From Planctomycetaceae bacterium (GTDB lineage: Bacteria > Planctomycetota > Planctomycetia > Pirellulales > Lacipirellulaceae), in the NCBI GenBank assembly GCA_002702655.1, contig PABB01000072.1, positions 1 through 64,000 on the forward strand: 64,000 bases of DNA, written 5' to 3'. Numbering within the stretch: the stretch's first letter is position 1; every line of letters starts with the position of its first letter. Below the pieces are notes generated by a model that saw nothing but the letters and a program-made list of their open reading frames with translations, had not been told where the DNA came from and made no database searches. Below are positions 4,744 through 19,852 of this stretch, piece after piece. Both the position numbers and the translations under genes were made by a program.

Positions 4744-5401
4744 GCCCTCCTTTGTACGGTACTTCGCCCGAGGAAGAAATCGCGTAACGCTTTCGGACCG
4801 TCTGCCGAAACGTCGGACGTGGGCGCGCTTCGGGGGGACTGGTCGTCTCACCCATTCGAATCCAGCCAGTCAAGTCACCCCTGCCGCAACAGCGAGCCAT
4901 GGAGGAAGGTCTCTCACCGTTCCGCTGCCACTTTGCGGAGAAACTGCCCTTGTTCAGCGAGCGGGGCAACCTTGATCGGGTCTTTCTTCTCCGATTTGTC
5001 CGCCGTCGCCATTTCAGATCCTCGCCCCGCAAATGCCGCTGATGTGTAAGCACGCCGTCCTGCCTATCATGCGGCTTGATCGAACGTGCGCCCACTTCGT
5101 GACGGATTTCACGAACTCAATTTTCTCATTTTCTTAGAAATTGTGCGTGAACCTTTCCCGGTTTCCGACATCTATACATGTAGCCCGCGACCGACAAGGG
5201 AAATGCGAGCTTAGATTTGAGTAGTGCAGTTTTCGATTTCGTTGTTGGAGAACGAATCATGTTACGGCTGAGTTTCATATGCTCATCGCTCGCGGCGAAT
5301 ATCGCCGGCTTGCCGTTCGCCCATCAGGCGAGCGATAAGCCCGGTTGTGCGCCCGCCGGCGAACAAAGGCGCAGATGACACTTGGCCGAACTCTTTGATG
5401 A

Positions 5402-5410
5402 GCCACAAGG
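5402..5410. repeat. 9-bp direct repeat GCCACAAGG, left copy; the right copy is at 11272-11280
   Basis: Identical 9-mer occurs immediately before the first tRNA-like gene and immediately 5-prime of the terminal tRNA-Asn. Confidence 0.35.
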
Positions 5411-5444
5411 CCCGGTGTCACTGCGACATCGGGCCTTTTTCTTT
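5409..5444 (+). terminator. Rho-independent terminator-like hairpin
   Basis: GGCCCGGTGTCACTGCGACATCGGGCC stem-loop followed by TTTTTCTTT. Confidence 0.5.
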
Positions 5445-5485
5445 GGCCGAGTGCCGATCGAAGAGGCCGACCCCCTACGGAATTT

Positions 5486-5557
5486 GGGCTGGTAGCTGAG
5501 ACGGTCTAGCGGCGGTCTGAAGAACCGCAGACGAGGATTCGAGCGCCTCCCGGCCCA
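5486..5557 (+). tRNA. tRNA-Phe(GAA)
   Basis: Acceptor GGGCTGG/CCGGCCC, D stem GCTG/TAGC, anticodon stem GCGGT/ACCGC with loop CTGAAGA. T-loop TTCGAGC with a noncanonical A53.G61 pair. 4-nt variable loop. Confidence 0.5.
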
Positions 5558-5593
5558 CTCTGCGCACCCGGTGCGCGCACTGCGAAACAACAC

Positions 5594-5666
5594 GGCCCGT
5601 TCGACTTCGGGTGAGGTCATCGGTCTTTCAAGCCGATCAGGTAGGGTTCGACTCCCACACGGGTCA
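5594..5666 (+). tRNA. tRNA-Glu(TTC)
   Basis: Acceptor GGCCCGT/ACGGGTC, anticodon stem TCGGT/GCCGA with loop CTTTCAA. T-loop TTCGACT with only a 3-bp T stem. Confidence 0.45.
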
Positions 5667-5739
5667 CTGCAAATCAGAACGTAGCGAAGTTTGGCATCGC
5701 GCTTGGCTGGGGGCCAAGAGATCGTCGGTCGATTTCTTG

Positions 5740-5788
5740 CTACCGCCCTGCGCTCGGCTGACGTTGAGTCAGCCGTGCTCGGTTGCTC
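5740..5788 (+). ncRNA. conserved-flank hairpin element, copy A
   Basis: Flanks CTACCGCCCTGCGC and GCTCGGTTGCTC are identical to copy B at 8799-8847. Between them is a perfect 7-bp hairpin GGCTGAC/GTCAGCC. The stem sequence differs between copies but the structure is kept. Confidence 0.4.
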
Positions 5789-5812
5789 GTTCTGACTTAC
5801 GCAATGACAACT

Positions 5813-5885
5813 CGGGCGGAGGTGCAGATGGGAGCACGCCGGTTTTGGGAACCGGAGGCTCTGGGTTCGACCCCCAGGCGCCCGA
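5813..5885 (+). tRNA. tRNA-Pro(TGG)
   Basis: C1-G72 first pair typical of bacterial tRNA-Pro. D stem GTGC/GCAC, anticodon stem CCGGT/ACCGG with loop TTTGGGA, T arm CTGGG-TTCGACC-CCCAG. Confidence 0.6.
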
Positions 5886-5903
5886 CTGATACGCAAACCA
5901 CGG

Positions 5904-5973
5904 TAGTCGAGGGCTGGTCGCCCCTACCCGGCTGATAACCGGGTCGCGCTGAGTTCGATTCCCTGGGCTACCA
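5904..5973 (+). pseudogene. degenerate tRNA-like, Ile(GAT)-type anticodon arm, with encoded CCA
   Basis: Anticodon arm CCCGG-CTGATAA-CCGGG and a TTCGATT T-loop, but the acceptor and T stems cannot be paired. Ends in CTACCA. Confidence 0.3.
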
Positions 5974-6057
5974 CTCGCATTCAACTTCACAAGCCACGAG
6001 GAACAACACGATGACGATCGTCCGGCGATGTAAACGGATACGCCCAACCCTGAACTT

Positions 6058-6129
6058 GGGGCTGTGGTGTAGCGGCTGCACAGCGGACTTTTAATCCGCA
6101 CGGTGAGGGTTCAAGTCCTTCCGGCCCCA
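6058..6129 (+). tRNA. tRNA-Lys(TTT)
   Basis: Acceptor GGGGCTG/CGGCCCC, D stem GTGT/GCAC, anticodon stem GCGGA/TCCGC with loop CTTTTAA, T arm GAGGG-TTCAAGT-CCTTC. Confidence 0.6.
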
Positions 6130-6133
6130 CTAT

Positions 6134-6207
6134 TGGCGCGTAGCGCAGTGGTGAGAGCGGCGACATTATAAGTCGCACCCTCGGAGGTTCGATTCCTCCC
6201 GCGCCAA
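6134..6207 (+). tRNA. tRNA-Ile(TAT), rare anticodon
   Basis: Perfect acceptor TGGCGCG/CGCGCCA with U1-A72. Anticodon stem GCGAC/GTCGC with loop ATTATAA, giving anticodon TAT. T arm GGAGG-TTCGATT-CCTCC. 6-nt variable region. Confidence 0.5.
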
Positions 6208-6218
6208 CTGAATAACAC

Positions 6219-6291
6219 GGGACTGAGGTGTTAGCGGCAGCATCCCTGGTTCTTACCCAGGCGGGTGAGGGTTCAAGTCCCTCTGGTCCCA
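6219..6291 (+). tRNA. tRNA-Lys(CTT)
   Basis: Acceptor GGGACTG/TGGTCCC, anticodon stem CCTGG/CCAGG with loop TTCTTAC, T arm GAGGG-TTCAAGT-CCCTC. Confidence 0.6.
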
Positions 6292-6380
6292 CTGAGTTTG
6301 ATGTCGGATGGCAAGCACGAGGCGTGTCGCAGCATTGCTCGGCGTGGATGACTCGTAAGGCGTTCGGCGCGAAAAAGGCA

Positions 6381-6530
6381 CTGGTCGTCTAGCGGCGAAG
6401 ACTCCGCTCTCGTACAGAGCAACTGAGGCCGCTGAGCGATAGCGAGGAGGGAGGCCGAAGGCGGTAGTAAGACACTGCTTCGAGTCCGGCCCGGTGCTCT
6501 GCCGTTCTTTGACAACTTACTTCGCATTGC
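6381..6530 (+). other. degenerate tRNA-like segment carrying repeat copy R1
   Basis: Has a D-arm-like GTCT-AGCGGCGA-AGAC and an anticodon-like GCTCT-CGTACAG-AGAGC. No pairing acceptor or T arm. Contains the 49-nt repeat at 6419-6467. Confidence 0.25.
6419..6467 (+). repeat. 49-nt repeat family copy R1 (GCAACTGAGGCCGCTGAGCGATAGCGAGGAGGGAGGCCGAAGGCGGTAG)
   Basis: 45/49 identical to R2 at 8629-8677. A more diverged copy R3 lies at 8955-9004 inside a long tRNA-like element. Confidence 0.6.
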
Positions 6531-6533
6531 TTT

Positions 6534-6604
6534 GCGCCCATGATGTAGTGGCAGCCTTCCTGCTTGCCATGCAGGGTGTGTCGGTTCGATTCCGGCTGGG
6601 CGCA
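6534..6604 (+). tRNA. tRNA-Gly(GCC)
   Basis: Perfect acceptor GCGCCCA/TGGGCGC, anticodon stem CCTGC/GCAGG with loop TTGCCAT, T arm GTCGG-TTCGATT-CCGGC. Followed by a T6 run. Confidence 0.55.
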
Positions 6605-6610
6605 TTTTTT

Positions 6611-6684
6611 CAGGACGTGGGAAAGCTTGGTATTCCGCGTGCTTCGGGCGCACGAGATCGCTGGTTCAAATCCAGCCGTCCTGA
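6611..6684 (+). tRNA. tRNA-Pro(CGG)
   Basis: Perfect acceptor CAGGACG/CGTCCTG with C1-G72, D stem GGAA/TTCC, anticodon stem CGTGC/GCACG with loop TTCGGGC, T arm GCTGG-TTCAAAT-CCAGC. Confidence 0.65.
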
Positions 6685-6692
6685 CTGACTAT

Positions 6693-6767
6693 TGCGGTGG
6701 GTCCTGTGCTGGTACGGGAAGGCGACTGTTAATCGTCGTGACGCAGGTTCGATTCCTGCCTCCGCAG
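6693..6767 (+). tRNA. tRNA-Asn(GTT)
   Basis: Acceptor TGCGGTG/CTCCGCA with one mismatch. Anticodon stem GGCGA/TCGTC with loop CTGTTAA, T arm GCAGG-TTCGATT-CCTGC. Confidence 0.55.
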
Positions 6768-6779
6768 CTCAAACGGACG

Positions 6780-6865
6780 GGCAAGCCAACGGGCGATGGC
6801 AGCTGCCTCGAAAGCAGTCGAGCGCCGAGCGCGCCTTGTGAGTTCGACTACCTCTCCTTCCGCTT
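6780..6865 (+). pseudogene. tRNA-like remnant
   Basis: Anticodon-like arm CTGC-CTCGAAA-GCAG and a T-loop-like GAGTTCGACTACCTC, but no acceptor pairing. Confidence 0.2.
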
Positions 6866-6868
6866 CAC

Positions 6869-6940
6869 GTGCCCTTGACCGAGCGGCCAAGGTGCCAGTC
6901 TTCCAAACTGGATAGGCGGGTTCGACTCCCGCAGGGCACT
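6869..6940 (+). tRNA. tRNA-Gly(TCC)
   Basis: Perfect acceptor GTGCCCT/AGGGCAC, anticodon stem CCAGT/ACTGG with loop CTTCCAA, T arm GCGGG-TTCGACT-CCCGC. Confidence 0.55.
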
Positions 6941-6949
6941 CTCAAGCTT

Positions 6950-7024
6950 TCCGGGGTCGTCGCTGTTGGTAGTGATGCCTGGCCTTGAACCAGGAGTCCG
7001 TAGGTTCGATTCCTACCCCCGGAA
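6950..7024 (+). tRNA. tRNA-Gln(TTG)-like with C33
   Basis: Perfect acceptor TCCGGGG/CCCCGGA, anticodon stem CCTGG/CCAGG with loop CCTTGAA, T arm GTAGG-TTCGATT-CCTAC. Confidence 0.45.
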
Positions 7025-7080
7025 CTCGCGAACCGTCCCCCACATGGGCTGGTCATGGTTCGACAACGCGAGGAGCTTCC

Positions 7081-7680
7081 ATGACCCAATTCCGTGAGAT
7101 ACGAGCCGATTTTGATCGCGACTCGATCGTCGTTTACCAGGCGTACCGTCCAGCCATCGCTGATGCAGCTTTGGAGGCCGGGCGATTCGTTGCTCCGTTC
7201 TCGTTCGGTCGTATGACTTGGATCAAGCCGTCGTTCCTATGGCTGATGGAGAGAAGCAATTGGGCCCGAAAGTCGGGCCAAGAGCGTATCTTGGCCATCC
7301 GCATAAAACGCAGCGGATGGGATTTGGCGTTAAGTGAGGCAGTGCTGACGTGTTTCGAGCCGAGGACTCATGGATCGATCGACCAATGGCGAGAGAAGTT
7401 TGACGAAGCCCACGTCCACGTGCAGTGGGATCCAGAGCGATCAATTCACGGGAAGAAGCTTGAGCATCGGTCGATTCAGGTCGCTATCGGCAGACAAGTG
7501 ATCAGCGAGTACGTGGAAGACTGGATTATCGAGCTAACGGACCTGACGCCACTTGCCAACAAAATCCGCCGACTGTGCGAGGAGGGCCACGCCGACCGAG
7601 GCAAGAGACTCCTCCCGTCGGAGAAACCATACGAGGTGTCGAATGAAACGGCTACACGACTGGCTATGACCGCCAGCTGA
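7081..7680 (+). CDS. DUF4291-like protein embedded in the tRNA array
   Basis: ATG at 7081 preceded by GAGGAG. The VYQAY and MTWIKPSFLWLM motifs match DUF4291 from memory. Stop TGA at 7678-7680, three nt before the next tRNA. Confidence 0.55.
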   Translation: MTQFREIRADFDRDSIVVYQAYRPAIADAALEAGRFVAPFSFGRMTWIKPSFLWLMERSNWARKSGQERILAIRIKRSGWDLALSEAVLTCFEPRTHGSIDQWREKFDEAHVHVQWDPERSIHGKKLEHRSIQVAIGRQVISEYVEDWIIELTDLTPLANKIRRLCEEGHADRGKRLLPSEKPYEVSNETATRLAMTAS

Positions 7681-7683
7681 CAC

Positions 7684-7754
7684 TGCGGGGTCGCGTAACG
7701 GCAGGACGGGGCGCTCTGAACGCCTTGGTGTTGGTTCGATTCCAGCCCCCGCAG
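7684..7754 (+). tRNA. tRNA-Gln(CTG)
   Basis: Perfect acceptor TGCGGGG/CCCCGCA, anticodon stem GGGCG/CGCCT with loop CTCTGAA, T arm GTTGG-TTCGATT-CCAGC. D arm irregular. Confidence 0.45.
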
Positions 7755-7759
7755 CTTAC

Positions 7760-7844
7760 GGAAGTCATCCGGCTGGATGAGGACGCTGTCTTGAAAACAG
7801 TTGGTCGCACCGGCGACTTGGGGATTCGAGTCCCTCGGCTTCCG
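7760..7844 (+). tRNA. tRNA-Ser(TGA), class II
   Basis: Acceptor GGAAGTC/GGCTTCC, anticodon stem GCTGT/ACAGT with loop CTTGAAA, long variable arm TGGTCGCACCGGCGACTT. T loop ATTCGAGT carries one extra nt. Confidence 0.55.
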
Positions 7845-7857
7845 CTCAACTCAACAC

Positions 7858-7930
7858 GGTCCTGTGGCCTAGCGGCAAAGGCAGCTTCCTTACAAGAAGA
7901 TGATCGGTGGTTCGAGTCCACCCAGGACTA
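7858..7930 (+). tRNA. tRNA-Val(TAC)
   Basis: Acceptor GGTCCTG/CAGGACT, D stem GCCT/AGGC, anticodon loop CTTACAA, T arm GGTGG-TTCGAGT-CCACC. Confidence 0.55.
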
Positions 7931-7940
7931 CTGGATAAGC

Positions 7941-7995
7941 GATGAACGATGAACGCGGAACTATGAACGGAGCGTTCAACGCTCATAGTTCATAG
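7941..7995 (+). other. AT-rich repeat/palindrome element between tRNAs
   Basis: Tandem GATGAAC GATGAAC is followed by nested inverted repeats CTATGAAC-GGAGCG-TTCAA-CGCTC-ATAGTTCATAG. Confidence 0.4.
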
Positions 7996-8010
7996 CTCGT
8001 TGTTCCAATT

Positions 8011-8085
8011 GTCCTCGTGGAGCAGCCTGGAGTGCTCGCCTGCCTGTCACGCAGGAGGACGCGGGTTCAAATCCCGCCGGGGACG
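8011..8085 (+). tRNA. tRNA-Asp(GTC)
   Basis: Acceptor GTCCTCG/CGGGGAC, D stem GAGC/GCTC, anticodon stem CCTGC/GCAGG with loop CTGTCAC, T arm GCGGG-TTCAAAT-CCCGC. Confidence 0.7.
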
Positions 8086-8167
8086 CTTTTGATGGCGGAT
8101 TGCGACATTCGCTATGTGCATGGATCTCAATCGGTTGTCGATTCGTGACTCGCATGCCAATAGGAAA

Positions 8168-8244
8168 GGCACGGTACGCAAACAGGAAAAGCGACGAAGC
8201 TCAAACCTTCGTGACGTTTGCGGGTTCGACTCCCGCCCGTGCTA
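8168..8244 (+). tRNA. tRNA-like with Leu anticodon CAA but class-I-like architecture
   Basis: Acceptor GGCACGG/CCGTGCT, 3-bp D stem CGC/GCG with an 11-nt loop, perfect anticodon stem CGAAG/CTTCG with loop CTCAAAC, 8-nt variable loop, T arm GCGGG-TTCGACT-CCCGC. Confidence 0.4.
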
Positions 8245-8259
8245 CTGACCGAGACACAT

Positions 8260-8358
8260 GCGTCGGCTGGGCACTGGCGAGCCGCAGTATTATTTGGAAA
8301 CGCGGGGCTGTAACCCACCCGCTTCCGAGCTATGCAGGTTCAACTCCTGCCCGGCGCA
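8260..8358 (+). tRNA. 99-nt tRNA-Tyr(GTA)-like with an AT-rich insertion
   Basis: Acceptor GCGTCGG/CCGGCGC pairs, T arm GCAGG-TTCAACT-CCTGC is perfect, and the Tyr-type loop CTGTAAC is present. A 17-nt AT-rich insert AGTATTATTTGGAAACG and an irregular anticodon stem disrupt the fold. Confidence 0.35.
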
Positions 8359-8368
8359 CTGACAACAC

Positions 8369-8439
8369 GGCCCGTTGGTCTAGCGGCAGGATGCGAGACC
8401 CTCAATCTCGCGGCGCGGGTTCGATTCCCGTACGGGCTA
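8369..8439 (+). tRNA. tRNA-Glu(CTC) with C33
   Basis: Acceptor GGCCCGT/ACGGGCT, anticodon stem CGAGA/TCTCG with loop CCCTCAA, T arm GCGGG-TTCGATT-CCCGT. Confidence 0.5.
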
Positions 8440-8446
8440 CTGATGC

Positions 8447-8549
8447 AGCCAAGTGGTGGAATAGGCGGGCACCAACCGTAGGTTGGTCGGCGCGACACTC
8501 AGAATGTCGTGCCACTTGTGGCGTGGGAGTTCGACTCTCCCCTTGGCTA
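8447..8549 (+). tRNA. tRNA-Leu(CAG), class II, with a 17-nt hairpin inserted in the D region
   Basis: Perfect acceptor AGCCAAG/CTTGGCT, anticodon arm CGACA-CTCAGAA-TGTCG, variable arm TGCCACTTGTGGCGT, T arm GGGAG-TTCGACT-CTCCC. An extra hairpin ACCAA-CCGTAGG-TTGGT sits between the D region and the anticodon stem. Confidence 0.45.
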
Positions 8550-8558
8550 CTGATTGAT

Positions 8559-8625
8559 GCGGGTGAGCCAGGCTCAGCCGGGCCTCATAAGCCCGGACCG
8601 TCGGGTGCGACTCCCGGACCCGCTA
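8559..8625 (+). pseudogene. degenerate tRNA-Met(CAT)-like
   Basis: Anticodon arm CCGGGC-CTCATAA-GCCCGG. T-loop TGCGACT, with G in place of the conserved U55. No room for a D arm. Confidence 0.3.
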
Positions 8626-8628
8626 CTA

Positions 8629-8677
8629 GCAACTGAGGCCGCCGAGCGATAGCGAGGATGAAGGCCGAAGGCGGTAG
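8629..8677 (+). repeat. 49-nt repeat family copy R2
   Basis: GCAACTGAGGCCGCCGAGCGATAGCGAGGATGAAGGCCGAAGGCGGTAG, 45/49 identical to R1. Confidence 0.6.
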
Positions 8678-8710
8678 CTCACCAAGAACTGCCGCGCAGC
8701 GACGATTGAT

Positions 8711-8786
8711 GACTGGGTACGCAAACTGGAAAAGCGACCAGGTCGAGAGCCTGGTGATTCTGTGGGTTCGACTCCCACCCTAGTCA
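8711..8786 (+). tRNA. tRNA-like with Leu anticodon GAG, class-I-like, paralogue of 8168-8244
   Basis: Acceptor GACTGGG/CCTAGTC, 3-bp D stem CGC/GCG with an 11-nt loop, anticodon stem CCAGG/CCTGG with loop TCGAGAG (C33), 7-nt variable loop, T arm GTGGG-TTCGACT-CCCAC. Confidence 0.4.
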
Positions 8787-8798
8787 CTTCGTGACAAA

Positions 8799-8847
8799 CT
8801 ACCGCCCTGCGCATACATGCCTTTTGGGCATGTATGCTCGGTTGCTC
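8799..8847 (+). ncRNA. conserved-flank hairpin element, copy B
   Basis: Same flanks as copy A. Perfect 11-bp hairpin GCATACATGCC-TTTTG-GGCATGTATGC. Confidence 0.4.
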
Positions 8848-8852
8848 TGAAT

Positions 8853-8925
8853 GATCCCGTGGTCCAACGGCAACGACGCCTGGGTGACAACCAGGAGAGC
8901 GATGGTTCGACTCCATCCGGGATCA
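8853..8925 (+). tRNA. tRNA-Val(GAC)
   Basis: Perfect acceptor GATCCCG/CGGGATC, anticodon stem CCTGG/CCAGG with loop GTGACAA, T arm GATGG-TTCGACT-CCATC. Confidence 0.6.
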
Positions 8926-8929
8926 CTTT

Positions 8930-9055
8930 GGTCTGTAAGTGTTGCGGCCGCACAAGCAAGGGCCGCCGCCGAGCAGTGCGCAGGAAGGAGGCTGGCCCGC
9001 GGTAGCAGAAAACACATAAGGACGAGGGCCGGGTTCAATTCCCGGACACGGACCT
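8930..9055 (+). other. 126-nt tRNA-like element with acceptor and T arm but a roughly 50-nt internal insertion (repeat copy R3)
   Basis: Acceptor GGTCTGT/ACGGACC pairs and T arm CCGGG-TTCAATT-CCCGG is intact. The interior carries the palindrome TTGCGGCCGCAA and an R-family repeat at 8955-9004. Confidence 0.3.
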
Positions 9056-9119
9056 TCAACCGAGCACGCTTGCCCAGAAGGCAAGCGAGCGCAGGGCGAA
9101 AGCAACTGACGAAAATCGC

Positions 9120-9192
9120 GGGCTGGCATGTTCCAAGGGGGCGACTGACTCTTGCAAGGTCGGTGCGAAGGGTTCGATTCCCTTCCGGTCCA
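9120..9192 (+). tRNA. tRNA-Ala(TGC)-like
   Basis: Acceptor GGGCTGG/CCGGTCC with 2 GU pairs, anticodon stem TGACT/GGTCG with loop CTTGCAA, T arm AAGGG-TTCGATT-CCCTT. D stem poor. Confidence 0.4.
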
Positions 9193-9202
9193 CTCACGAC
9201 GA

Positions 9203-9273
9203 GGGCTCATGGTCCAACGGGACGACACCGGCTCGGCAGGTCGGAGATCTGGGTTCGATTCCCAGTGGGTCCA
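9203..9273 (+). tRNA. tRNA-Ala(GGC)-like with C33
   Basis: Acceptor GGGCTCA/TGGGTCC, anticodon stem CCGGC/GTCGG with loop TCGGCAG, T arm CTGGG-TTCGATT-CCCAG. Confidence 0.45.
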
Positions 9274-9277
9274 CTCA

Positions 9278-9568
9278 TCAATCAGGCCAGATGCCGGCGT
9301 CAACGGCGGCTTGGCGATTGTGACCGCAGTCGACTTTGGCGCCATCTATCAGGACTTCAGGATAGTCACCCCGTTCAACATACAGTTGAGTATTGCCATC
9401 AGTCTCAACCATAGCGAACCAAGGCCCTTGATCTGTGTCAGAAACCATCGTTGAAGCGACAAGTTTTTCCTTGGGAAGCATGGTGTAGTCTTCGCCCCAG
9501 GGCTCGATCCATACGATGTGAGGACGAGGACGATCGTTGTAGATCTCGATTGAGGAGACTCGCTGCAT
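9278..9568 (-). CDS. hypothetical small protein (low-GC cargo ORF inside the array)
   Basis: ORF sits in a roughly 50% GC stretch between tRNAs. Start chosen at MQRVSS. No clear SD. Confidence 0.2.
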   Translation of the reverse strand: MQRVSSIEIYNDRPRPHIVWIEPWGEDYTMLPKEKLVASTMVSDTDQGPWFAMVETDGNTQLYVERGDYPEVLIDGAKVDCGHNRQAAVDAGIWPD

Positions 9569-9589
9569 GGCACCAGGATAGCGACTTCG

Positions 9590-9700
9590 AAACACGGAAG
9601 GTAGCCGGATACGGCTCGCCGGGCCAGTTTGCTCGGGCCGTGCGACTCCACAAGGGTCATGTGGGATCAAATCGGGCACCGACGCGCAGCGTTGGTCTAC
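9590..9700 (+). pseudogene. degenerate tRNA-like remnants
   Basis: TGCGACTCC T-loop variant and ATCAAAT loop fragments without a complete cloverleaf. Confidence 0.2.
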
Positions 9701-9729
9701 CTTCCGCTCGCGTTGATCGAATACGACAC

Positions 9730-9801
9730 AGCTCGATGGTGAAACGGACATCATGTCTCGCTTCTAACGAGAGGTTCCAGGTTCGAATCCTGGTCGAGCT
9801 G
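9730..9801 (+). tRNA. tRNA-Arg(TCT)
   Basis: Perfect acceptor AGCTCGA/TCGAGCT, D stem GTGA/TCAT, anticodon stem TCTCG/CGAGA with loop CTTCTAA, T arm CCAGG-TTCGAAT-CCTGG. Confidence 0.65.
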
Positions 9802-9812
9802 CTGAAGAGTAA

Positions 9813-9897
9813 GGAAGGGCAACCCGATTGGCGACGGGACCCGGTTGGAAGCCGGTTGAGCTTCATGGCCTTGAGGGTTCGACTCCCTCTCCTTCCG
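9813..9897 (+). tRNA. tRNA-Ser(GGA), class II
   Basis: Acceptor GGAAGGG/TCCTTCC, anticodon stem CCGG/CCGG with loop TTGGAAG, roughly 15-nt variable arm, T arm GAGGG-TTCGACT-CCCTC. Confidence 0.5.
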
Positions 9898-10519
9898 CTG
9901 GTTTGGTACGACCCTTTCCTGAGCGACTGTGGAAAACACGGAATGGGACAGATGCTACCAAAGAAATCCCAACAGAGATTAACCATATCAATAGCCAGGT
10001 ATGCCACCCGGAGTCCAGGAATCGCCCCCAATAGTCGATAACGCCGTGCTCACGCGACCAGCTTGCATCAGCAATGATGAGCGATGCAGTCACACAACTT
10101 GCCGCCCAACAGCCCAGGAACAACCACCACCCGGACGCCAGAACGCAGATCGCTAGAGGAAGTAGCAAGTTCAAAAGGCAACCAACGACCCAGCCGCCAA
10201 ATCCAAAACCGCGTATGAAAGGGCCAGCCCAATATACGGCCGAGGTCGCAACCAGGAATGCAACTACCGTCGAAACCGACTTTCCAGTCTCCGTTCCTGC
10301 AAACAGCTTTCTCTTGAAACTAACCGATCGAGGATGACACAAGATAGCAATCGCGAGTGCCGGCACAAACCCGATTGCAGAAAACACTGCCGCGATCCAA
10401 GGCGCGTCAGCAACACCTCCCCGAATCCATGACATCGCCACTGAAGTAAACAACCCAAATGCCGCTGCGCACAAGACCGCTTCCGAAGGAGAAAACGACT
10501 TTTGGTTCGAGTTGGCCAT
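9863..10519 (-). CDS. hypothetical multi-pass membrane protein (low-GC cargo ORF)
   Basis: 5-6 predicted TM helices. Roughly 50% GC, against above 60% for the surroundings. The ATG at 10517-10519 is preferred over the upstream TTG. The 3-prime 35 nt overlap tRNA-Ser on the opposite strand. Confidence 0.35.
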   Translation of the reverse strand: MANSNQKSFSPSEAVLCAAAFGLFTSVAMSWIRGGVADAPWIAAVFSAIGFVPALAIAILCHPRSVSFKRKLFAGTETGKSVSTVVAFLVATSAVYWAGPFIRGFGFGGWVVGCLLNLLLPLAICVLASGWWLFLGCWAASCVTASLIIADASWSREHGVIDYWGRFLDSGWHTWLLIWLISVGISLVASVPFRVFHSRSGKGRTKPAEGEGVEPSRP

Positions 10520-10551
10520 GAATCGCAAGTTACCACACAAATGAAGTCTGT

Positions 10552-10617
10552 GGTGTACACGGTACGCACGCCTGCCTGTGAAGCAGGAGGTACGGGTTCG
10601 ATTCCCGTCGGATACCC
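10552..10617 (+). pseudogene. tRNA-His(GTG)-like, degenerate
   Basis: Anticodon arm CCTGC-CTGTGAA-GCAGG and T arm ACGGG-TTCGATT-CCCGT, but a truncated D arm and a poorly pairing acceptor. Confidence 0.35.
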
Positions 10618-10622
10618 CTTAT

Positions 10623-10692
10623 GCGAGTGTGCTCCTGGGAGAGCAGTCAGCCTCCAAAACTGACGAACAGGGTTCGAATCCTTGCGCTCGTG
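10623..10692 (+). tRNA. tRNA-Trp(CCA)
   Basis: Acceptor GCGAGTG/CGCTCGT with 2 GU pairs. Anticodon loop CTCCAAA is closed by GTCAG/CTGAC plus a C.A pair. T arm CAGGG-TTCGAAT-CCTTG. Confidence 0.5.
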
Positions 10693-10696
10693 CTTT

Positions 10697-10784
10697 GCCG
10701 ACGTGGCCGAATAGCTAGGCGCCGGTTTTGCCCCGTCCCTAGATAAAGCAGCGGTTGATGCTGGTGCGACTCCAGTCGTCGACC
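10697..10784 (+). pseudogene. class-II-like tRNA-like with G55 T-loop variant
   Basis: Acceptor GCCGACG/CGTCGAC pairs 6/7. T arm GCTGG-TGCGACT-CCAGT. Anticodon region ambiguous. Confidence 0.3.
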
Positions 10785-10788
10785 CTAC

Positions 10789-10852
10789 ATCTCGATGGTG
10801 TAACGGACCGCACGGGGCTCTCCAAGTCCTGGTTCGATTCCAGGTCGAGATG
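10789..10852 (+). pseudogene. truncated tRNA-like, 64 nt
   Basis: Perfect acceptor ATCTCGA/TCGAGAT, D arm and T arm intact, CTCCAAG loop, but the 3-prime half of the anticodon stem and the variable loop are missing. Confidence 0.3.
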
Positions 10853-10860
10853 CTGCGAAC

Positions 10861-10932
10861 AGCCCGTGAGTGTGCCGGATAGCATGTCAGCTTCCGAAGC
10901 TGTTGGACCAGGTTCGATTCCTGGACGGGCTA
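10861..10932 (+). tRNA. tRNA-Arg(CCG)
   Basis: Perfect acceptor AGCCCGT/ACGGGCT, anticodon stem CAGC/GCTG with loop TTCCGAA, T arm CCAGG-TTCGATT-CCTGG. Confidence 0.6.
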
Positions 10933-10936
10933 CTAC

Positions 10937-11009
10937 GCCTTGCGAGTGTGACGGACGAGCACGGCAGACTTCGAATCTGCAAGACGGGGTTCGATTCCCT
11001 GGCGAGGTA
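10937..11009 (+). tRNA. tRNA-Arg(TCG)
   Basis: Acceptor GCCTTGC/GCGAGGT, D stem GTGT/GCAC, perfect anticodon stem GCAGA/TCTGC with loop CTTCGAA, T arm CGGGG-TTCGATT-CCCTG. Confidence 0.65.
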
Positions 11010-11013
11010 CTTC

Positions 11014-11084
11014 AGCCTGTGAGTGTGTTGGATGCACGCGACCGTGCGAAGGTCGTAGGCCAGGTTCGATTCCTGGACGGGCTG
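11014..11084 (+). tRNA. tRNA-Arg(GCG)
   Basis: Acceptor AGCCTGT/ACGGGCT, D stem GTGT/GCAC, perfect anticodon stem CGACC/GGTCG with loop GTGCGAA, T arm CCAGG-TTCGATT-CCTGG. Confidence 0.6.
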
Positions 11085-11091
11085 CTAATTT

Positions 11092-11162
11092 GACGCTGGA
11101 GCCAGATGGCCAGGCAGCCGGCTGCAACCCGGCCAAAGTGGGTTCGACTCCCACCGGCGTCT
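11092..11162 (+). tRNA. tRNA-Cys(GCA)
   Basis: Acceptor GACGCTG/CGGCGTC, perfect anticodon stem GCCGG/CCGGC with loop CTGCAAC, T arm GTGGG-TTCGACT-CCCAC. Confidence 0.6.
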
Positions 11163-11274
11163 CTTTGTAAGCGAGGTTTTGAAAGCGCTGGGCCAGCGGC
11201 GCCCTCGGCCCCTTTCACCAGGTTGGCCGGGTGTGTTCCGTGGATGGATTGTTACGAAGGCGCGCGAGACCGCC

Positions 11275-11348
11275 ACAAGGTTAGCTCAGTTGGTTAGAGC
11301 ACCAGGCTGTTAACCTGGCTGTCACGGGTTCGACTCCCGTACCACACC
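11275..11348 (+). tRNA. tRNA-Asn(GTT) with canonical body but non-pairing acceptor stem
   Basis: Canonical D arm TAGCTCAGTTGGTTAGAGC, anticodon arm CCAGG-CTGTTAA-CCTGG and T arm ACGGG-TTCGACT-CCCGT. The 5-prime acceptor ACAAGGT pairs with the 3-prime ACCACAC over only 3 of 7 positions. The 9-bp direct repeat abuts its 5-prime end. Confidence 0.5.
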
Positions 11349-11807: not shown

Positions 11808-12914
11808 ATGTTGTTTTTCAAGAAGGTGAAGATCAAGAGTTACGAGGTCGGCCTGTACTTCCGTGACGGCGAGTTCAAGCGATTGCTGACCACCGGTCGA
11901 CACTGGTTGTTCGATCCGCTGTGGAAGGTCCGCGTCGACGTCGTGTCGCAGCGTGATCCGTGGCTGGTCCACGACAAGCTGGACGTGATCGTCAAGAGCG
12001 GCGCCCTGACGGGTCTGGCCAAGGTCGTCGACCTCAAGGACCACGAGCGGGCGCTCGTGTGGATCGAGGGCCGCTTCAGCCATGTTCTGCCGCCGGGACT
12101 GTACGCCTACTGGACCGGCTTCAAGGACGTGCGGGTCGCGGTGATCAACGCCCGTGAAGTTCGGCTGCAGCATGCGGACTTCAAGGCGATCGTCCGTTCG
12201 CCGCACGCTGCGCAGGTGCTCGACATCTGCACGGTCGAGCGGAACCACGTGGGCGTTGCCTTCGTCGACGGCGAGTACGTCGAGACGCTCACCCCGGGCC
12301 AGTACGCCTGGTGGCGTGGCGTCGCCGACGCGAAGGTGGTCGAGGTCGACCTACGCGAGCAGGCCTTGGACGTGGCGGGTCAGGAAATCATGACCGCCGA
12401 TAAGGTCACGCTCCGCATGAACGCCTTGGTCAACTACCGCGTGACCGACGCTCGCAAGGCTGTGATGGTCAGCGACGGCGCGACGCAGTCGCTGTACCGC
12501 GAGGCTCAGCTGGCGTTGCGTGCCGTGGTTGGGATTCGCGACTTGGACTCGTTCCTGACGGACAAGGACGCCGTCGCCAGCGAGTTCGCGGAGCAGGTCA
12601 GCCGACGGGCGGGTGAGTTGGGTCTGGAAGTGGTTTCGGTAGGTGTCCGCGACGTCATCTTGCCGGGCGACATGAAGGACCTGATGAACAAGGTCACCGA
12701 GGCCAAGAAGGCCGCCGAGGCGAACCTGATCTCGCGACGCGAGGAGACGGCGGCCATGCGTAGCCAGGCGAACACCGCCAAGCTGCTCGCCGACAACCCG
12801 ACGCTGATGCGTCTCCGGGAACTGGAGGTCCTGGAGAAGGTCGCCACGAGCGGCAAGCTCAACGTCGTCTTGGGCGAGAAGGGCCTCGCCGATCGCGTGG
12901 TCAACCTGTTGTAG
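11808..12914 (+). CDS. SPFH/band 7 domain protein (stomatin/slipin-like)
   Basis: ATG at 11808 preceded by AAGGAGG. SPFH core with a C-terminal coiled coil. Followed by a strong terminator. Confidence 0.8.
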   Translation: MLFFKKVKIKSYEVGLYFRDGEFKRLLTTGRHWLFDPLWKVRVDVVSQRDPWLVHDKLDVIVKSGALTGLAKVVDLKDHERALVWIEGRFSHVLPPGLYAYWTGFKDVRVAVINAREVRLQHADFKAIVRSPHAAQVLDICTVERNHVGVAFVDGEYVETLTPGQYAWWRGVADAKVVEVDLREQALDVAGQEIMTADKVTLRMNALVNYRVTDARKAVMVSDGATQSLYREAQLALRAVVGIRDLDSFLTDKDAVASEFAEQVSRRAGELGLEVVSVGVRDVILPGDMKDLMNKVTEAKKAAEANLISRREETAAMRSQANTAKLLADNPTLMRLRELEVLEKVATSGKLNVVLGEKGLADRVVNLL

Positions 12915-13347: not shown

Positions 13348-14529
13348 ATGGTTCAAAAGATCCACGTCAACGTCGGCACGATCGGTCACATCGACCACGG
13401 GAAGACGACGCTTACCACCGCGAACTTGCGCGTGCAGTCCGGGCGCGGCCTGGCCGAGTATAAGTCCTACGCCGAGGTCGCCAAGGGCGGCGTCACCCGC
13501 GACAAGAACAAGACCGTCACGGTCATCACTTCGCACGTGCAGTACGAGACGGAGTCGCGCAGCTACGCGCACGTCGACTGCCCGGGCCACGCGGACTACA
13601 TCAAGAACATGATCACCGGCGCCGCCCAGATGGACGGGGCCGTGCTCTTGGTGTCGGCCGTGGACGGCCCGATGCCGCAGACGCGGGAGCATATCCTGCT
13701 GGCGCGGCAGGTCGGCGTGCCTCACCTGGTCGTCTTCATGAACAAGTGCGACCTGGTCGAGGACCCGGAGTTGCTCGACCTCGTGGAGCTGGAGATGCGC
13801 GAGATGCTCACGCACTACGGGTTCCCAGGAGAGGACGTTCCGTTCGTGCGGGGCTCCGCGCTCTTGGCGCACGACAACCCGGCGGACGCGGAGTCGAGTC
13901 GTTGCATCGGCGAGTTGCTGGACGCGCTCGACACGTACGTGCCTGCCCCCAAGCGGGCGGTCGACAAGCCGTTCCGGATGTCGATCGAGAACGTGTTCTC
14001 GATCGAGGGGCGGGGCACCGTTGTGACCGGCGTGGTCGATCAAGGCCGGATCGCTCCCGGCGACTCGGTCGACATCGTCGGCCTGGCGGACCAGCCGCGG
14101 ACGGTCGTGTGCACGCAGCTCAAGACGTTTCAGGACGTCTTGGAGTCCGCCGAGGCGGGCGACAACGTCGGTTGTTTGCTCCGTGGCGTCGGCCGCGATG
14201 AGGTCGAGCGCGGGCAGGTGATTGTCGCTCCCGGATCGCTCGCGCCGCACACACGGTTCGAGTCGGAGGTGTACGTGCTCGACCAAGGAGAGGGCGTCCG
14301 GCACACGCCGTTCATAAACGGTTACACGCCGCAGTTCTTCTTCCGCACGACGGACGTGACCGGAGAGGTGAGCCTGCTGGGAGGCGCCGAGGTCGCGATG
14401 CCGGGCGACGGCATCAAGCTCGGTGTCCGGCTGCAGAAGCCAATCGCCCTGGATGCTGGCTCGCGTTTCGCGATCCGCGAAGGGAACCGCACGGTTGGTT
14501 CCGGTGTCGTGACGTGTATTATTGAGTAG
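13348..14529 (+). CDS. tuf: elongation factor Tu paralogue with a divergent switch I
   Basis: 393 aa with G1 [24 protein letters not shown] and the EF-Tu C-terminal [10 protein letters not shown]. The switch I/effector region is [15 protein letters not shown] where canonical EF-Tu has [19 protein letters not shown] SD. Not in a str/S10 ribosomal context. Confidence 0.85.
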
Positions 14530-17155: not shown

Positions 17156-17590
17156 ATGGCGCTTGATAAGCGTACGCGCGAGCAGATGCTCGCAATGTGT
17201 GGAGAGATCCACGAGGACGACGGGGTCGACCCCCGCGAATTCTTCAAGTCGGGACGTGGTCCCCGCAAGCAAGACCACAAAGCGCGGCAGCTCTGCCGCC
17301 AGGCGGCGGCGACCTTGGACCAGGTACTCTCTGGAGAGACGGGCGACGATCGACTGGCCTGCCTGCGGGTCGTCTCGGTGCAGCCAGCACCGGACGCATC
17401 GCGGCTGCTGGTCACAGTTGTGGCGACCTGCGCTGCAGTGGACTTCTGTCGAGATGCGACAGCAGCCCACCTGCAAGGGTCCGCAGGGCGATTGAGGACC
17501 GCGGTCGCGGCGGCGATCACGCGTCGCAAGGCGCCGACGCTGGCGTTCGTCTTGCTCGGCCCCGATGGAGAGGAGGCCCAACATGGTTGA
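17156..17590 (+). CDS. hypothetical small protein, translationally coupled to rtcB
   Basis: ORF ends 7 nt into the rtcB start region and has plausible composition. No recognised domain. Confidence 0.4.
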   Translation: MALDKRTREQMLAMCGEIHEDDGVDPREFFKSGRGPRKQDHKARQLCRQAAATLDQVLSGETGDDRLACLRVVSVQPAPDASRLLVTVVATCAAVDFCRDATAAHLQGSAGRLRTAVAAAITRRKAPTLAFVLLGPDGEEAQHG

Positions 17591-18716
17591 GCCACAACTC
17601 GCGGAACTGCAAACCTGGCTCACCGAACCGCTGACGTCGGCCGTCGCGGAGTCCGTATCAAGACTCCGCGCGGCCGAGGGCGTGAAGAAGGTTTGCCTGA
17701 TGCCCGACGTGCACCTCGCTGCAGAGGTGTGCGTCGGCGCTGTGGTCGCTACCGAGGGCGCCCTCTACCCACAAGCGGTTGGAGGCGACATAGGTTGTGG
17801 CATGGCGGCGCTGCGTTTCGACCTCGAAGCCGAAGCGCTTAGCAACGAGCGGCCGGCCGGCGCCGTGCTGGCCGCCCTGTACCGGTCTGTGCCCAGCAAC
17901 AAGCACCGCCAGGCGGTCCCTCTCCCTGAGGCGTTACGCCCCGCCGATCTGAGCGAGCAGACACTGGCTAAGCTCGCCACGCGTGACGGCGCTGTGCAAC
18001 TCGGAACGCTCGGTCGCGGCAACCATTTTCTGGAGTTCCAAGTAGACGAAGCCGGGCAGCTGTGGGTGATGCTGCACAGCGGCTCGCGGGCGATGGGGCA
18101 GGCGATCACCGCTCTCCATGTATCAAACGGAGAGCCAAACCGTTTCGGGCTCCGCGGCCTCGACGCCGAAACCCATCTCGGCGCCGCCTATCTTAAGGAC
18201 GTGGCTTGGGCGAGGAAGTACGCCACGGAGAACCGGTTGGCGATGCTGCGGGCGGTTGAAGAGCTCATGTCTCGGCTCTTCCGAGCCGACGCGGACTGGA
18301 AATCACTCATCCACGCCGACCACAACCACGTGCAGAGAGAGGCTTACGGCGGGCGGAGCTATTTCGTCCACCGCAAAGGCGCTCAATCCGCGGCGGACGG
18401 CGAATCCGGCGTCGTTCCCGGTTCGATGGGCGCCGCCAGTTTCCACACCGTCGGCCGAGGCTGCGCAGCGTCACTCTCGTCCTGTTCCCACGGGGCCGGA
18501 AGGCGCATGAGCCGGACAGAAGCCCGCCAAGAGATCACCAGTAAGTCGTTCCAGCGGCAAGTTGGCGGGCTCTGGTACGATCACCGCCGCGTCGATCGCC
18601 TGCGAGACGAGTCGCCCGGCGCCTACAAGAACATCCGTGAGGTGATGCGCGCCCAGCGCGAGCTCGTCAAAATCGTCCGCAAACTCCGGCCCCTGCTGAG
18701 CTACAAGGGCGTCTAA
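17583..18716 (+). CDS. rtcB: RtcB-family RNA ligase (3-prime-phosphate/5-prime-OH)
   Basis: PDVHLA, GGDIGCGM, GRGNHFLE, HADHNH and SHGAGR motifs. GGAGGAGG SD before the ATG at 17583. Short, about 378 aa form. Confidence 0.85.
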   Translation: MVEPQLAELQTWLTEPLTSAVAESVSRLRAAEGVKKVCLMPDVHLAAEVCVGAVVATEGALYPQAVGGDIGCGMAALRFDLEAEALSNERPAGAVLAALYRSVPSNKHRQAVPLPEALRPADLSEQTLAKLATRDGAVQLGTLGRGNHFLEFQVDEAGQLWVMLHSGSRAMGQAITALHVSNGEPNRFGLRGLDAETHLGAAYLKDVAWARKYATENRLAMLRAVEELMSRLFRADADWKSLIHADHNHVQREAYGGRSYFVHRKGAQSAADGESGVVPGSMGAASFHTVGRGCAASLSSCSHGAGRRMSRTEARQEITSKSFQRQVGGLWYDHRRVDRLRDESPGAYKNIREVMRAQRELVKIVRKLRPLLSYKGV

Positions 18717-18817: not shown

Positions 18818-19852
18818 TCAGCTCAAGACCGTCAATAGTCGATCGTGAATGATGGGCCACGGCCGATCGAGATCGATGCTCTTGATGCCGATCGCGTGGC
18901 CGAGCAGCGTGAAATCGAGGTCCAGGTGGTGGTTCACCGCGGGGTAGAGCAGGACCCCCGCGACCGACTCCCACCCGGGGTCGCGGGATTTGTTGCTCAG
19001 GTAGGCGGTCAACTGGTAGAGGTGCGCCGAGTGCAGGCGGTGGCGGTTGTGGCGGGTCGCCAAGGCTGACTTGTAGAACTTGCAATCGAGGATCGTTTTC
19101 TTGGCGGGCCGGTCGAGCGTCACGTCGGTGTGCATCCGCGGCAGCACCTGCTCGACCTCGTCCCCCCATGACCCGTCCCAGTTGATCGCCATGGCCGACA
19201 CCCTGGCGTCGGGGCAGTGCCGGATCGCGAACTTTCGCACAAACGCCTCGAAAACCCGGTGCATGACCGTTTCCGATTCCAGGATGCTCCGGAACCGCTT
19301 GCCGCCCGCTTGCTGCGAGGGCAGGTGCGCCTCGTGCAGCAGCTGGCACACGTGCATCAGCAGACGGTAGTGCCGGTTGTTGCGGTGCAGCTGATAGCGG
19401 CGGAAGGTTCTCGAAGTAATCGCCACCGGCTGGATGTCCGACAGCAGCGCGAGCGCGTGCCGCGCCTCCAGCCGGTTTTCCTTGGTGAGCTGGGAGCCGG
19501 CGGCCGCGAGCCGCAGGCAGGTGCTCTTGAGGATGCGGTTGGGGAGCGTGTTCGCCGTCAGCTCGTCATACTCGCAGAGCATCCGCCCGGAGACGTGCAT
19601 CATCCGCCGGCAGCTCGCCAGCACGTCGACGCGACCGCGCAGACGCGGCGTCGCCTCCCGAAACTCATGGTAGCCCTTGTCCATCCCTTGGCTGGCTAGG
19701 CAGCGCACCCCGCCGGTCAACAGCATCGCCAGCAGGTTGTGGGCGTCGGGGCACTGCCGCGGGTCGATGTTGACCTCCTCGCCGCTGCGGAAGTGGTCCC
19801 ACGCGTAGGCGAGCAGGTAGTAGACGTTCTGAACGGGGATCGCACTGATCAT
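18818..19852 (-). CDS. mcrC: McrC-like restriction system subunit
   Basis: PD-(D/E)xK-like LDCKFYK motif. ATGA overlap with the upstream McrB gene. Confidence 0.8.
   Translation of the reverse strand: MISAIPVQNVYYLLAYAWDHFRSGEEVNIDPRQCPDAHNLLAMLLTGGVRCLASQGMDKGYHEFREATPRLRGRVDVLASCRRMMHVSGRMLCEYDELTANTLPNRILKSTCLRLAAAGSQLTKENRLEARHALALLSDIQPVAITSRTFRRYQLHRNNRHYRLLMHVCQLLHEAHLPSQQAGGKRFRSILESETVMHRVFEAFVRKFAIRHCPDARVSAMAINWDGSWGDEVEQVLPRMHTDVTLDRPAKKTILDCKFYKSALATRHNRHRLHSAHLYQLTAYLSNKSRDPGWESVAGVLLYPAVNHHLDLDFTLLGHAIGIKSIDLDRPWPIIHDRLLTVLS

Follow-up and report, generated by a model that had tools for sequence, protein, structure and literature searches.

Two tRNA genes with Leu anticodons, CAA and GAG, lie in a stretch of 64,000 nucleotides from a Planctomycetaceae bacterium (hereafter the window), and both carry a short variable loop where bacterial tRNA-Leu of the textbook kind has a class II arm. 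The question raised by this locus is whether such genes encode leucine tRNAs, tRNAs that are mischarged or recode, or pseudogenes. It is approached here through the structure, conservation and covariation of the genes, their identity elements, the restriction of their anticodons and their genomic context. The likely answer is that both are tRNA-Leu genes, either functional or called upon only under certain conditions, that belong to a supernumerary long tRNA array (L-array), widespread in Pirellulales and Planctomycetales, in which loss of the variable arm would be tolerated.

Structure of the two genes and their place in a long tRNA array

Both genes were found with ARAGORN (Table 1), and its drawings confirm the original prediction of CAA and GAG anticodons, a 3-bp D stem, a variable loop of 7-8 nt and, in Leu(GAG), C33. 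In each gene, a 7-bp acceptor stem is followed by T8 A9 and by a D stem CGC/GCG (3 bp) with an 11-nt loop AAAC(A/T)GGAAAA; the Leu(CAA) D arm reads CGC-AAACAGGAAAA-GCG. The anticodon stems are perfect over 5 bp (CGAAG/CTTCG in Leu(CAA), CCAGG/CCTGG in Leu(GAG)), with an additional 26:44 A-T pair in both. The T arms have the form G(C/T)GGG-TTCGACT-CCC(G/A)C, the discriminator is A73 and CCA is not encoded. The variable regions in the ARAGORN drawings, TGACGTTT in Leu(CAA) and TGATTCT in Leu(GAG), are 8 and 7 unpaired nt with no class II helix, so that the departure from the class II textbook form, as predicted, holds. The two genes are also paralogous as proposed, with 76% identity across 42 nt and a common skeleton. 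A D-arm plus T-arm pattern matches exactly these two genes in the window, with 0 matches expected from shuffles.

Folding with ViennaRNA gives the full cloverleaf as the minimum-energy structure of Leu(GAG) (z = -2.5), and for Leu(CAA) all of the cloverleaf but the weak D stem, which is replaced (z = -1.75). An alternative fold giving another isotype had been raised as a possible objection; none of the tools used gave either gene a fold with a different anticodon. The anticodon loop of Leu(GAG) is TCGAGAG (T32 C33 GAG A37 G38). A shifted reading of this loop, with U32 as the turn and CGA as the anticodon, was rejected because a perfect stem of 5 bp leaves a loop of exactly 7 nt, and because orthologues with U33 read GAG in the same register.

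Table 1. Features of the window around the two short-armed tRNA-Leu genes. The gathering score of the Rfam tRNA model (RF00005) is 29.
Feature	Position	Strand	Evidence
Conserved leader upstream of tRNA-Phe, the first array gene	5377..5447	+	Terminator-like hit; conserved in 16 arrays
Long tRNA array (L-array)	5486..11343	+	29 tRNAs with default ARAGORN, 35 relaxed, plus disrupted members
tRNA-Leu(CAA)	8168..8244	+	ARAGORN (8168-8245); Rfam tRNA 48.1 bits, E 4e-8; in 73-gene covarying family
Class II tRNA-Leu(CAG), variable arm TGCCACTTGTGGCGT	8447..8550	+	Relaxed ARAGORN; aligned to intact L013 orthologue
Array repeat of ~50 nt (CTACCGCC...GTTGCT)	8628..8677	-	34 nt upstream of Leu(GAG)
tRNA-Leu(GAG)	8711..8786	+	ARAGORN (8711-8787); Rfam tRNA 44.2 bits, E 4e-7
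Array repeat of ~50 nt, second copy	8799..8846	+	12 nt downstream of Leu(GAG)
SPFH/Band 7 (slipin-like) gene, directly downstream of array	11808..12914	+	Pfam PF01145, 6e-30
Divergent EF-Tu paralogue near array	13348..14529	+	Pfam EF-Tu domains; NCBIfam equivalog 569 bits (cut-off 522)
RtcB-family RNA ligase gene	17565..18716	+	Pfam PF01139, 2e-82; NCBIfam RtcB family, under equivalog cut-off

Both genes lie within a long array of tRNA genes. L-arrays are defined as at least 20 tRNA genes at a density of at least 2 per kb in one orientation, and as patchily distributed extras beside a dispersed set of housekeeping genes (PMC8421152, PMC4758250). The window array has 29-35 genes in 5.9 kb, all on the + strand; with relaxed ARAGORN, 34 of the 35 tRNAs called are + strand genes within the array. 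The window has a G+C content of ~0.62 and a bacterial gene content.

Searching one genome per species with the D-arm/T-arm pattern gave 46 matching genome contigs, 45 of them from Planctomycetota; the other is short and was binned as Alcaligenaceae. The taxa with matches include Pirellulales, Planctomycetales, Stieleria, Rubripirellula, Gimesia, Mariniblastus and Thermoguttaceae. All matches lie inside long arrays that are syntenic with the window array, with a recognisably conserved gene order. The pattern has 0 matches in viral contigs, and a phage origin of the short-armed Leu family is therefore unsupported. A megablast search of the window array against phage and plasmid collections returned trivial tRNA or McrB matches only.

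L-arrays are described as horizontally spread extra sets of tRNA genes, and Planctomycetes are among the phyla that have them (PMC8421152, PMC4758250). Strain SH139, whose genome holds one of the syntenic arrays (L018), has 96 tRNA genes, against 43-67 in four relatives (PMC13190842). From this count we infer that the planctomycete array is supernumerary and that a housekeeping set of class II tRNA-Leu exists beside it.

The window array keeps Leu(CAG), Leu(GAG) and Leu(CAA), the isoacceptors for the three most used Leu codons: in eleven Pfam-supported window genes, Leu is encoded by CUG (46%), CUC (28.5%), UUG (16.6%), CUU (5%), CUA (2.5%) and UUA (1.1%). Leu genes with TAA and TAG anticodons are present in most related arrays and absent from that of the window.

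Other array members are also unusual. G32 is found in array tRNAs Val(GAC) (loop GTGACAA) and Arg(GCG) (GTGCGAA). The regular members include a tRNA-Ile whose genomic anticodon is TAT, and arrays L027 and L049 each have a tRNA with a TTA anticodon, which would decode UAA stop codons.

Structural constraint, leucine identity and loss of the variable arm

Constraint on the short-armed genes was assessed in an alignment of 55 family members, in which the acceptor and anticodon stems lie outside the search pattern. Standard pairs are formed by 98.6% of stem cells, and 14 of the 21 stem pairs show changes on both sides. These values were reached by 0 of 500 shuffles, and slid 3' partners pair at 36-50%. 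Most of the covariation is carried by the acceptor and anticodon stems. Compensatory pairs are also seen within single orthologue groups (13/21 in GAG, 8/21 in CAA).

When the D-arm signature was searched for with no restriction on the anticodon, 77 genes were found, 73 of them with an intact anticodon arm. All 73 have Leu anticodons (GAG 35, CAA 22, TAA 14, CAG 2), and non-Leu anticodons one base away from these do not occur among them. The four broken members are easily recognised, three of them by a hairpin insertion.

These results bear on whether the two genes are decaying pseudogenes, that is, inactive copies in a cryptic array whose short arm and C33 are damage. Other genes of the window array are visibly broken, and L-arrays are poorly expressed in the cases studied, as such a reading would lead one to expect. 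However, the loss of structural constraint by which tRNA pseudogenes are recognised is not seen here: the architecture is kept in 46 genome contigs, the anticodons stay within the Leu set, and position 33 remains a pyrimidine in 872 of 880 array tRNAs, which argues for continued function. Because stem pairing and compensatory changes persist, decay is ruled out as a general explanation, and pseudogene status, one of the options in the original prediction, is improbable for the two window genes.

Leucine identity is indicated by several features. A73 is present in 61 of the 62 members of the A/B family, which has the scaffold of the two window genes. Across the arrays, the discriminator is A in 102 of 103 short-armed Leu genes and 29 of 29 class II Leu genes, and G in 73 of 77 Ser genes. 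Array class II Leu genes share the D-loop spacing xAAYNGGxAxA with the short-armed ones, and the D arms of Ser and Tyr differ from it. T8, A14, A15, G18, G19, a T as last variable base and T54/A58 are invariant in the 55-sequence alignment, although the D arm and part of the T arm are fixed by the search pattern, so that invariance there is partly due to the search. A15 and the terminal T of the variable region make up an A15-U48 pair.

The elements recognised by LeuRS of the E. coli type are A73, A14, A15-U48, G18/G19-U55/C56 and U54-A58 (PMC6614811). When the genes are tested for the Leu identity set, A73, U8-A14, A15-U48, the placement of G18G19, U54-A58 and a Leu anticodon are all found, and the long arm is not. 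Thus, of the two identity elements singled out in the original prediction, the discriminator A73 is present and the long variable arm is missing. Taken together, five lines (anticodons, A73, D loop, A15-U48 and the LeuRS element list) point to leucine as the amino acid that these sequences specify.

An alternative is that a non-Leu synthetase charges the short-armed body, so that Leu codons are read as another amino acid. The body is class I-like, and Leu did not stand out in a crude sequence-HMM test with home-made nhmmer profiles, one for each isotype, made from array tRNAs after masking of the anticodon and trimming of the arm: scores in the A/B family are weak and split, with class II Leu best in 22/62 and Ser best in 22/62, and the best model for the window Leu(GAG) is Ser, at 27 bits. 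Against this, the genes keep the Leu identity set intact and lack the Ser determinants (G73 and a long arm); the anticodons match no anticodon-reading synthetase outside the Leu family, and relatives carry Leu anticodons only. In the array, moreover, CAA and GAG anticodons are carried solely by short-armed genes, and the Leu scaffolds jointly make up a full set of Leu isoacceptors. Mischarging or recoding, as suggested in the original prediction, is thus highly improbable.

Loss of the arm is widespread in array Leu genes. In ~112 of 142 Leu genes from 47 arrays the arm is a stretch of 5-13 nt with no helix, and these genes belong to at least four scaffolds. The remaining 30 have an arm of 13-19 nt with a 3-4-bp helix, and nearly all of them are on one scaffold, usually with the anticodon CAG. 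Two further short-armed scaffolds (C and D) carry TAA, TAG, CAG or CAA anticodons only. In L008 and L019 the class II scaffold has itself cleanly lost the arm, leaving a variable region TATTT or TTGTT. Array Ser genes (84-92 nt) and Tyr genes (81-86 nt) retain their variable arms, as would be expected because SerRS and bacterial TyrRS depend on the arm.

The recognition of tRNA-Leu of the E. coli type is independent of the anticodon, and in minimal-substrate work on E. coli LeuRS both the variable arm and the anticodon arm were reportedly dispensable. In Streptomyces coelicolor, type II tRNA-Leu without the base pairs of the arm still accepts leucine, and the minimum variable region is ~5 nt including nucleotide 48 (PMC6614811). 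Every member of the short-armed family keeps a variable region of at least 5 nt.

The C33 of Leu(GAG) is a second departure, since U33 is near-universal in tRNAs. Breaking it should weaken the U-turn. C33 is found in 24 of 36 Leu(GAG) orthologues, across at least seven versions of the anticodon stem, and family members with CAA, TAA and CAG anticodons always have T33. Among the 880 array tRNAs, position 33 is C in 102 (12%), A in 6 and G in 2. C33 clusters in some of the arrays and, among the isoacceptors, mainly in Glu(CTC), Val, Ala, Thr(CGT) and a small number besides. The window genes that have it are Gln(TTG) (6950-7025), Glu(CTC) (8369-8440), Leu(GAG) and Ala(GGC) (9203-9274).

Leader, repeats, disrupted members and neighbouring genes

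The array is preceded by a conserved leader, which has no Rfam match. It consists of a box, TGACACTTGGCC at 5377-5388 of the window and (A/G/T)TGACACTTGGCC across the arrays, followed by a 13-bp G+C-rich hairpin (5407-5437) and a T tract, with the hairpin ~50 nt before the first tRNA. The same leader is found in L005, L010, L013, L018, L021, L031, L033, L035, L037-L041, L044 and L048. The box is similar to the hairpin's 3' arm and could pair with the 5' arm, and box and arm covary: L031 and L044 have a box with GACG and an arm with CGTC, as compensatory changes. This arrangement suggests a terminator/antiterminator switch. A mini-ORF in the leader (MTLG...) is possible, because the base before TG is never C at any of the 16 loci.

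Repeats of ~50 nt flank Leu(GAG) (Table 1). Other copies in the window are at 5740-5787 (+) and 6418-6467 (-), with a degenerate copy at 9057-9113; the four copies with the exact pattern in the 64 kb all lie within the array, where 0 are expected by chance. Beyond the window, the repeat occurs at L021 3338-3385, where it adjoins Leu(GAG), and at L041 5692-5741. One repeat copy lies inside a disrupted Thr(CGT) gene, directly after the anticodon.

Several members of the window array that are intact in other arrays are disrupted by insertions (6378-6499, 8260-8359, 8930-9050, 9596-~9680 and 10697-10785). ARAGORN missed or miscalled the disrupted genes, which are Thr(CGT) with an insert of 44 nt, Tyr(GTA) with 17 nt, Thr(GGT) with ~43 nt in two blocks, and Ser(GCT); a Thr(TGT)-like interrupted gene was called as Gln. 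The class II Leu(CAG) of the window has an extra hairpin of ~19 nt, GGGCACCAACCGTAGGTTGGTC, between the D arm and the anticodon stem. The presence of RtcB nearby raises the idea that inserts are spliced introns. For Thr(GGT) and Thr(CGT) this was rejected, as neither the anticodon arm nor the T arm becomes whole once the insert is removed; the inserts of Leu(CAG) and Tyr may be spliced introns. With several members disrupted, the window's copy of the array may be under relaxed selection.

Hairpins of 22-26 nt, with the form GAC-CACCGC-loop-GCGGTG-CCC, are inserted within tRNA genes of other arrays (L011 6911-6936, L019 4732-4755 and 4825-4848, L024 2288-2311, L025 4400-4425 and L033 4350-4375). 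In three arrays the hairpin is at the same point in the anticodon arm of a short-armed gene of the Leu(CAA) family and destroys the anticodon loop, and in other array tRNAs the point of insertion is immediately 5' of the T stem. The window has a related hairpin, in the opposite orientation, at ~8469-8490 in Leu(CAG). Possibly the hairpin is a small palindromic mobile element with tRNA genes as its targets.

The SPFH gene directly downstream of the window array encodes a protein 69-77% identical to orthologues that adjoin the arrays in L031, L050, L028 and L019, which points to a Pirellulales-like planctomycete as the source of the window. The EF-Tu gene is complete and lies outside the usual tuf context (Thr-Tyr-Gly-Thr-tuf-Trp). 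Its product is ~60% identical, from the printed alignment, to the best match with a solved structure; identity is 57-66% against the best 80 metagenome EF-Tu matches and 64-72% against array-linked copies. Array-linked EF-Tu genes are found inside the array in L027 (3138-4307) and L049 (3356-4036), and a few kb downstream in L058 (4879-6042) and the window. The metagenome EF-Tu scan gave mostly housekeeping tuf loci, and L058 is the only further array-linked copy among the matches listed.

A McrC/McrB-like pair and a gene for an 1837-aa protein lie at 18818-21981 and 25025-30538. The 1837-aa protein has DUF4011, an AAA_11/AAA_12 helicase, an MTES_1575 nuclease and C-terminal WGR domains. Together these look like a defence-type cluster a few kb from the array.

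The neighbourhood, the arm loss and C33 can be read together in another way, as a spare pool of tRNAs hardened against nucleases, or as nuclease sponges or decoys; this would be compatible with charging. Loss of the Leu arm would remove a cleavage target, and C33 and odd loop bases would blunt anticodon nucleases. The repeated loss of the arm on at least four scaffolds, including the clean deletions in L008 and L019, would fit such a role, as would the excess of C over A and G at position 33, the clustering of C33 in certain isoacceptors and arrays, and the proximity of RNA repair (RtcB), McrBC and the large helicase-nuclease. There are also precedents: loop mutations let phage tRNAs evade anticodon nucleases (PMC10264068), the variable loop of tRNA-Tyr is reported to be cut by Septu (PMC13096335), and a sponge role has been proposed for the Anabaena array. 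By analogy, we hypothesise that C33 may be an escape from U33-dependent nucleases. The phage escape tRNAs (PMC10264068) resemble the array genes in being clustered accessory tRNAs with loops unlike those of host housekeeping tRNAs, but they are phage-borne, whereas the short-armed Leu family has no match in viral contigs and escape is here only a hypothesis. No nuclease of such specificity was identified within the window, however, and simple tolerance by LeuRS also explains the retention of Ser and Tyr arms. The remnant length of 5-13 nt resembles drift as much as design, and C33 could be a tolerated transition. The nuclease-hardened pool is accordingly a doubtful explanation of the genes, and tolerated arm loss in a tRNA-Leu is preferred.

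Known short-armed tRNA-Leu genes and the proposed function of the array

The original prediction had stated that bacterial tRNA-Leu is always class II. This does not hold, as S. coelicolor has a type I tRNA-Leu(CAA) that is leucylated by LeuRS (PMC6614811), and the trn operon of Anabaena (Nostoc) sp. PCC 7120, on plasmid pCC7120delta, has four short-armed Leu genes. These are all of its Leu genes (TAA, GAG, TAG and CAA); they are 75-78 nt long, with variable regions of 5-7 nt, A73 and a D loop CAATTGGCAGA. In the literature consulted, no statement was found that the Leu genes of the Anabaena trn operon are short-armed.

The Anabaena operon is a close parallel: like the window array, which is probably also supernumerary, it is a one-strand long array with short Leu genes, A73 and a Leu-type D loop. 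The two differ in phylum, in the order of the genes and in primary sequence. A plasmid carries the Anabaena array, with an HNH endonuclease gene at its flank and TrcR repressing the promoter, whereas in planctomycetes a conserved leader hairpin with a T tract is present and the arrays frequently come with an EF-Tu gene. TrcR represses the Anabaena trn operon, rtcB and a slipin-family gene together (PMC10272220). The link of rtcB and slipin/SPFH genes to the array is thus through a common regulator in Anabaena and through physical adjacency in the window, and by analogy the planctomycete island resembles the TrcR stress regulon with its genes brought together on the chromosome segment. The Anabaena operon is silent in standard culture and induced by antibiotics that target the ribosome, and 23 of its 26 tRNAs are aminoacylated in vivo (PMC8421152). 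As four of the tRNAs are short-armed Leu and charging was undetected for three of the 26, at least one short-armed tRNA-Leu must be charged.

The S. coelicolor type I tRNA-Leu(CAA) is like the window genes in having a short variable loop; it coexists in one cell with class II tRNA-Leu served by the same LeuRS, is leucylated and needs U8-A14 for charging, and it is a single essential housekeeping gene outside any array (PMC6614811). Its variable loop is 5 nt (ACAGC, with C48), and those of the window genes are 7-8 nt and end in U48; some planctomycete orthologues also have a 5-nt variable region, and the window array includes the class II Leu(CAG). A73 is not an identity element for the S. coelicolor tRNA, which is charged through a specialised leucine-specific domain of LeuRS; two other LeuRS enzymes failed to charge it (PMC6614811). 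Since that case needed a specialised domain, charging by planctomycete LeuRS is not guaranteed.

E. coli-type class II tRNA-Leu shares A73, U8-A14, A15-U48 and U54-A58 with the window genes, as well as the 3-bp D stem and an 11-nt loop with GG at loop positions 6-7; it differs in its long helical variable arm, which in the window genes is replaced by a stretch with no helix. Animal mitochondrial tRNA-Leu is also of class I type with A73, but it is organellar, with a relaxed elbow and a dedicated mitochondrial LeuRS, and has no evolutionary link to the window genes.

Under the preferred reading, selection on structure would keep both tRNA-Leu isoacceptors in shape, with Leu(CAA) reading UUG and Leu(GAG) reading CUC/CUU. 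The long variable arm would have collapsed to an unpaired stretch of 5-13 nt, a loss that is probably tolerated because bacterial LeuRS reads neither arm nor anticodon. The enzyme would instead read A73 and the core, namely U8-A14, A15-U48 and the position of G18G19 in a D arm with a 3-bp stem and an 11-nt loop, all of which are retained. The array is probably transcribed from a single promoter behind the conserved leader hairpin, and its tRNAs would mature through the action of RNase P and the addition of CCA; those of the two genes would then be leucylated and used in translation. Use is most likely under translation stress, by analogy with the Anabaena trn operon. Expression, charging and the condition of use are thus what we infer for the array.

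A more ambitious reading makes the planctomycete array the core of a self-contained translation-rescue island, with a leader attenuator, ~40 tRNAs, an SPFH/slipin gene, a divergent EF-Tu and RtcB. The tRNAs would be adapted to withstand tRNA-targeting nucleases, through loss of the cleavable Leu arm and through C33 in a defined subset of isoacceptors. This is offered tentatively, as we think it unlikely. If it were true, loss of the Leu arm would be an adaptive L-array trait recurring across phyla, and not tolerated decay.

The finding is a real departure from the textbook within two known kinds, short-armed bacterial tRNA-Leu and the tRNAs of L-arrays. The apparent novelty lies in how extensive arm loss is among array Leu genes and in its recurrence in two phyla, and also in how often C33 occurs; a literature search found no report of either. 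Bacterial type I tRNA-Leu has so far been treated as a rarity, known from one Streptomyces gene. Planctomycete arrays hold over 100 short-armed Leu genes, which belong to at least four scaffolds and are under structural constraint, and the same state is seen in the experimentally tractable Anabaena array. The genes form a natural series, with variable regions of 5-19 nt and some arm deletions within a single scaffold, in which one can ask what purpose the tRNA-Leu arm serves and to what extent LeuRS recognises the tRNA without it. The array tRNAs are also a pool of non-canonical anticodon loops, given the share with C33, and this bears on the question of what L-arrays do.
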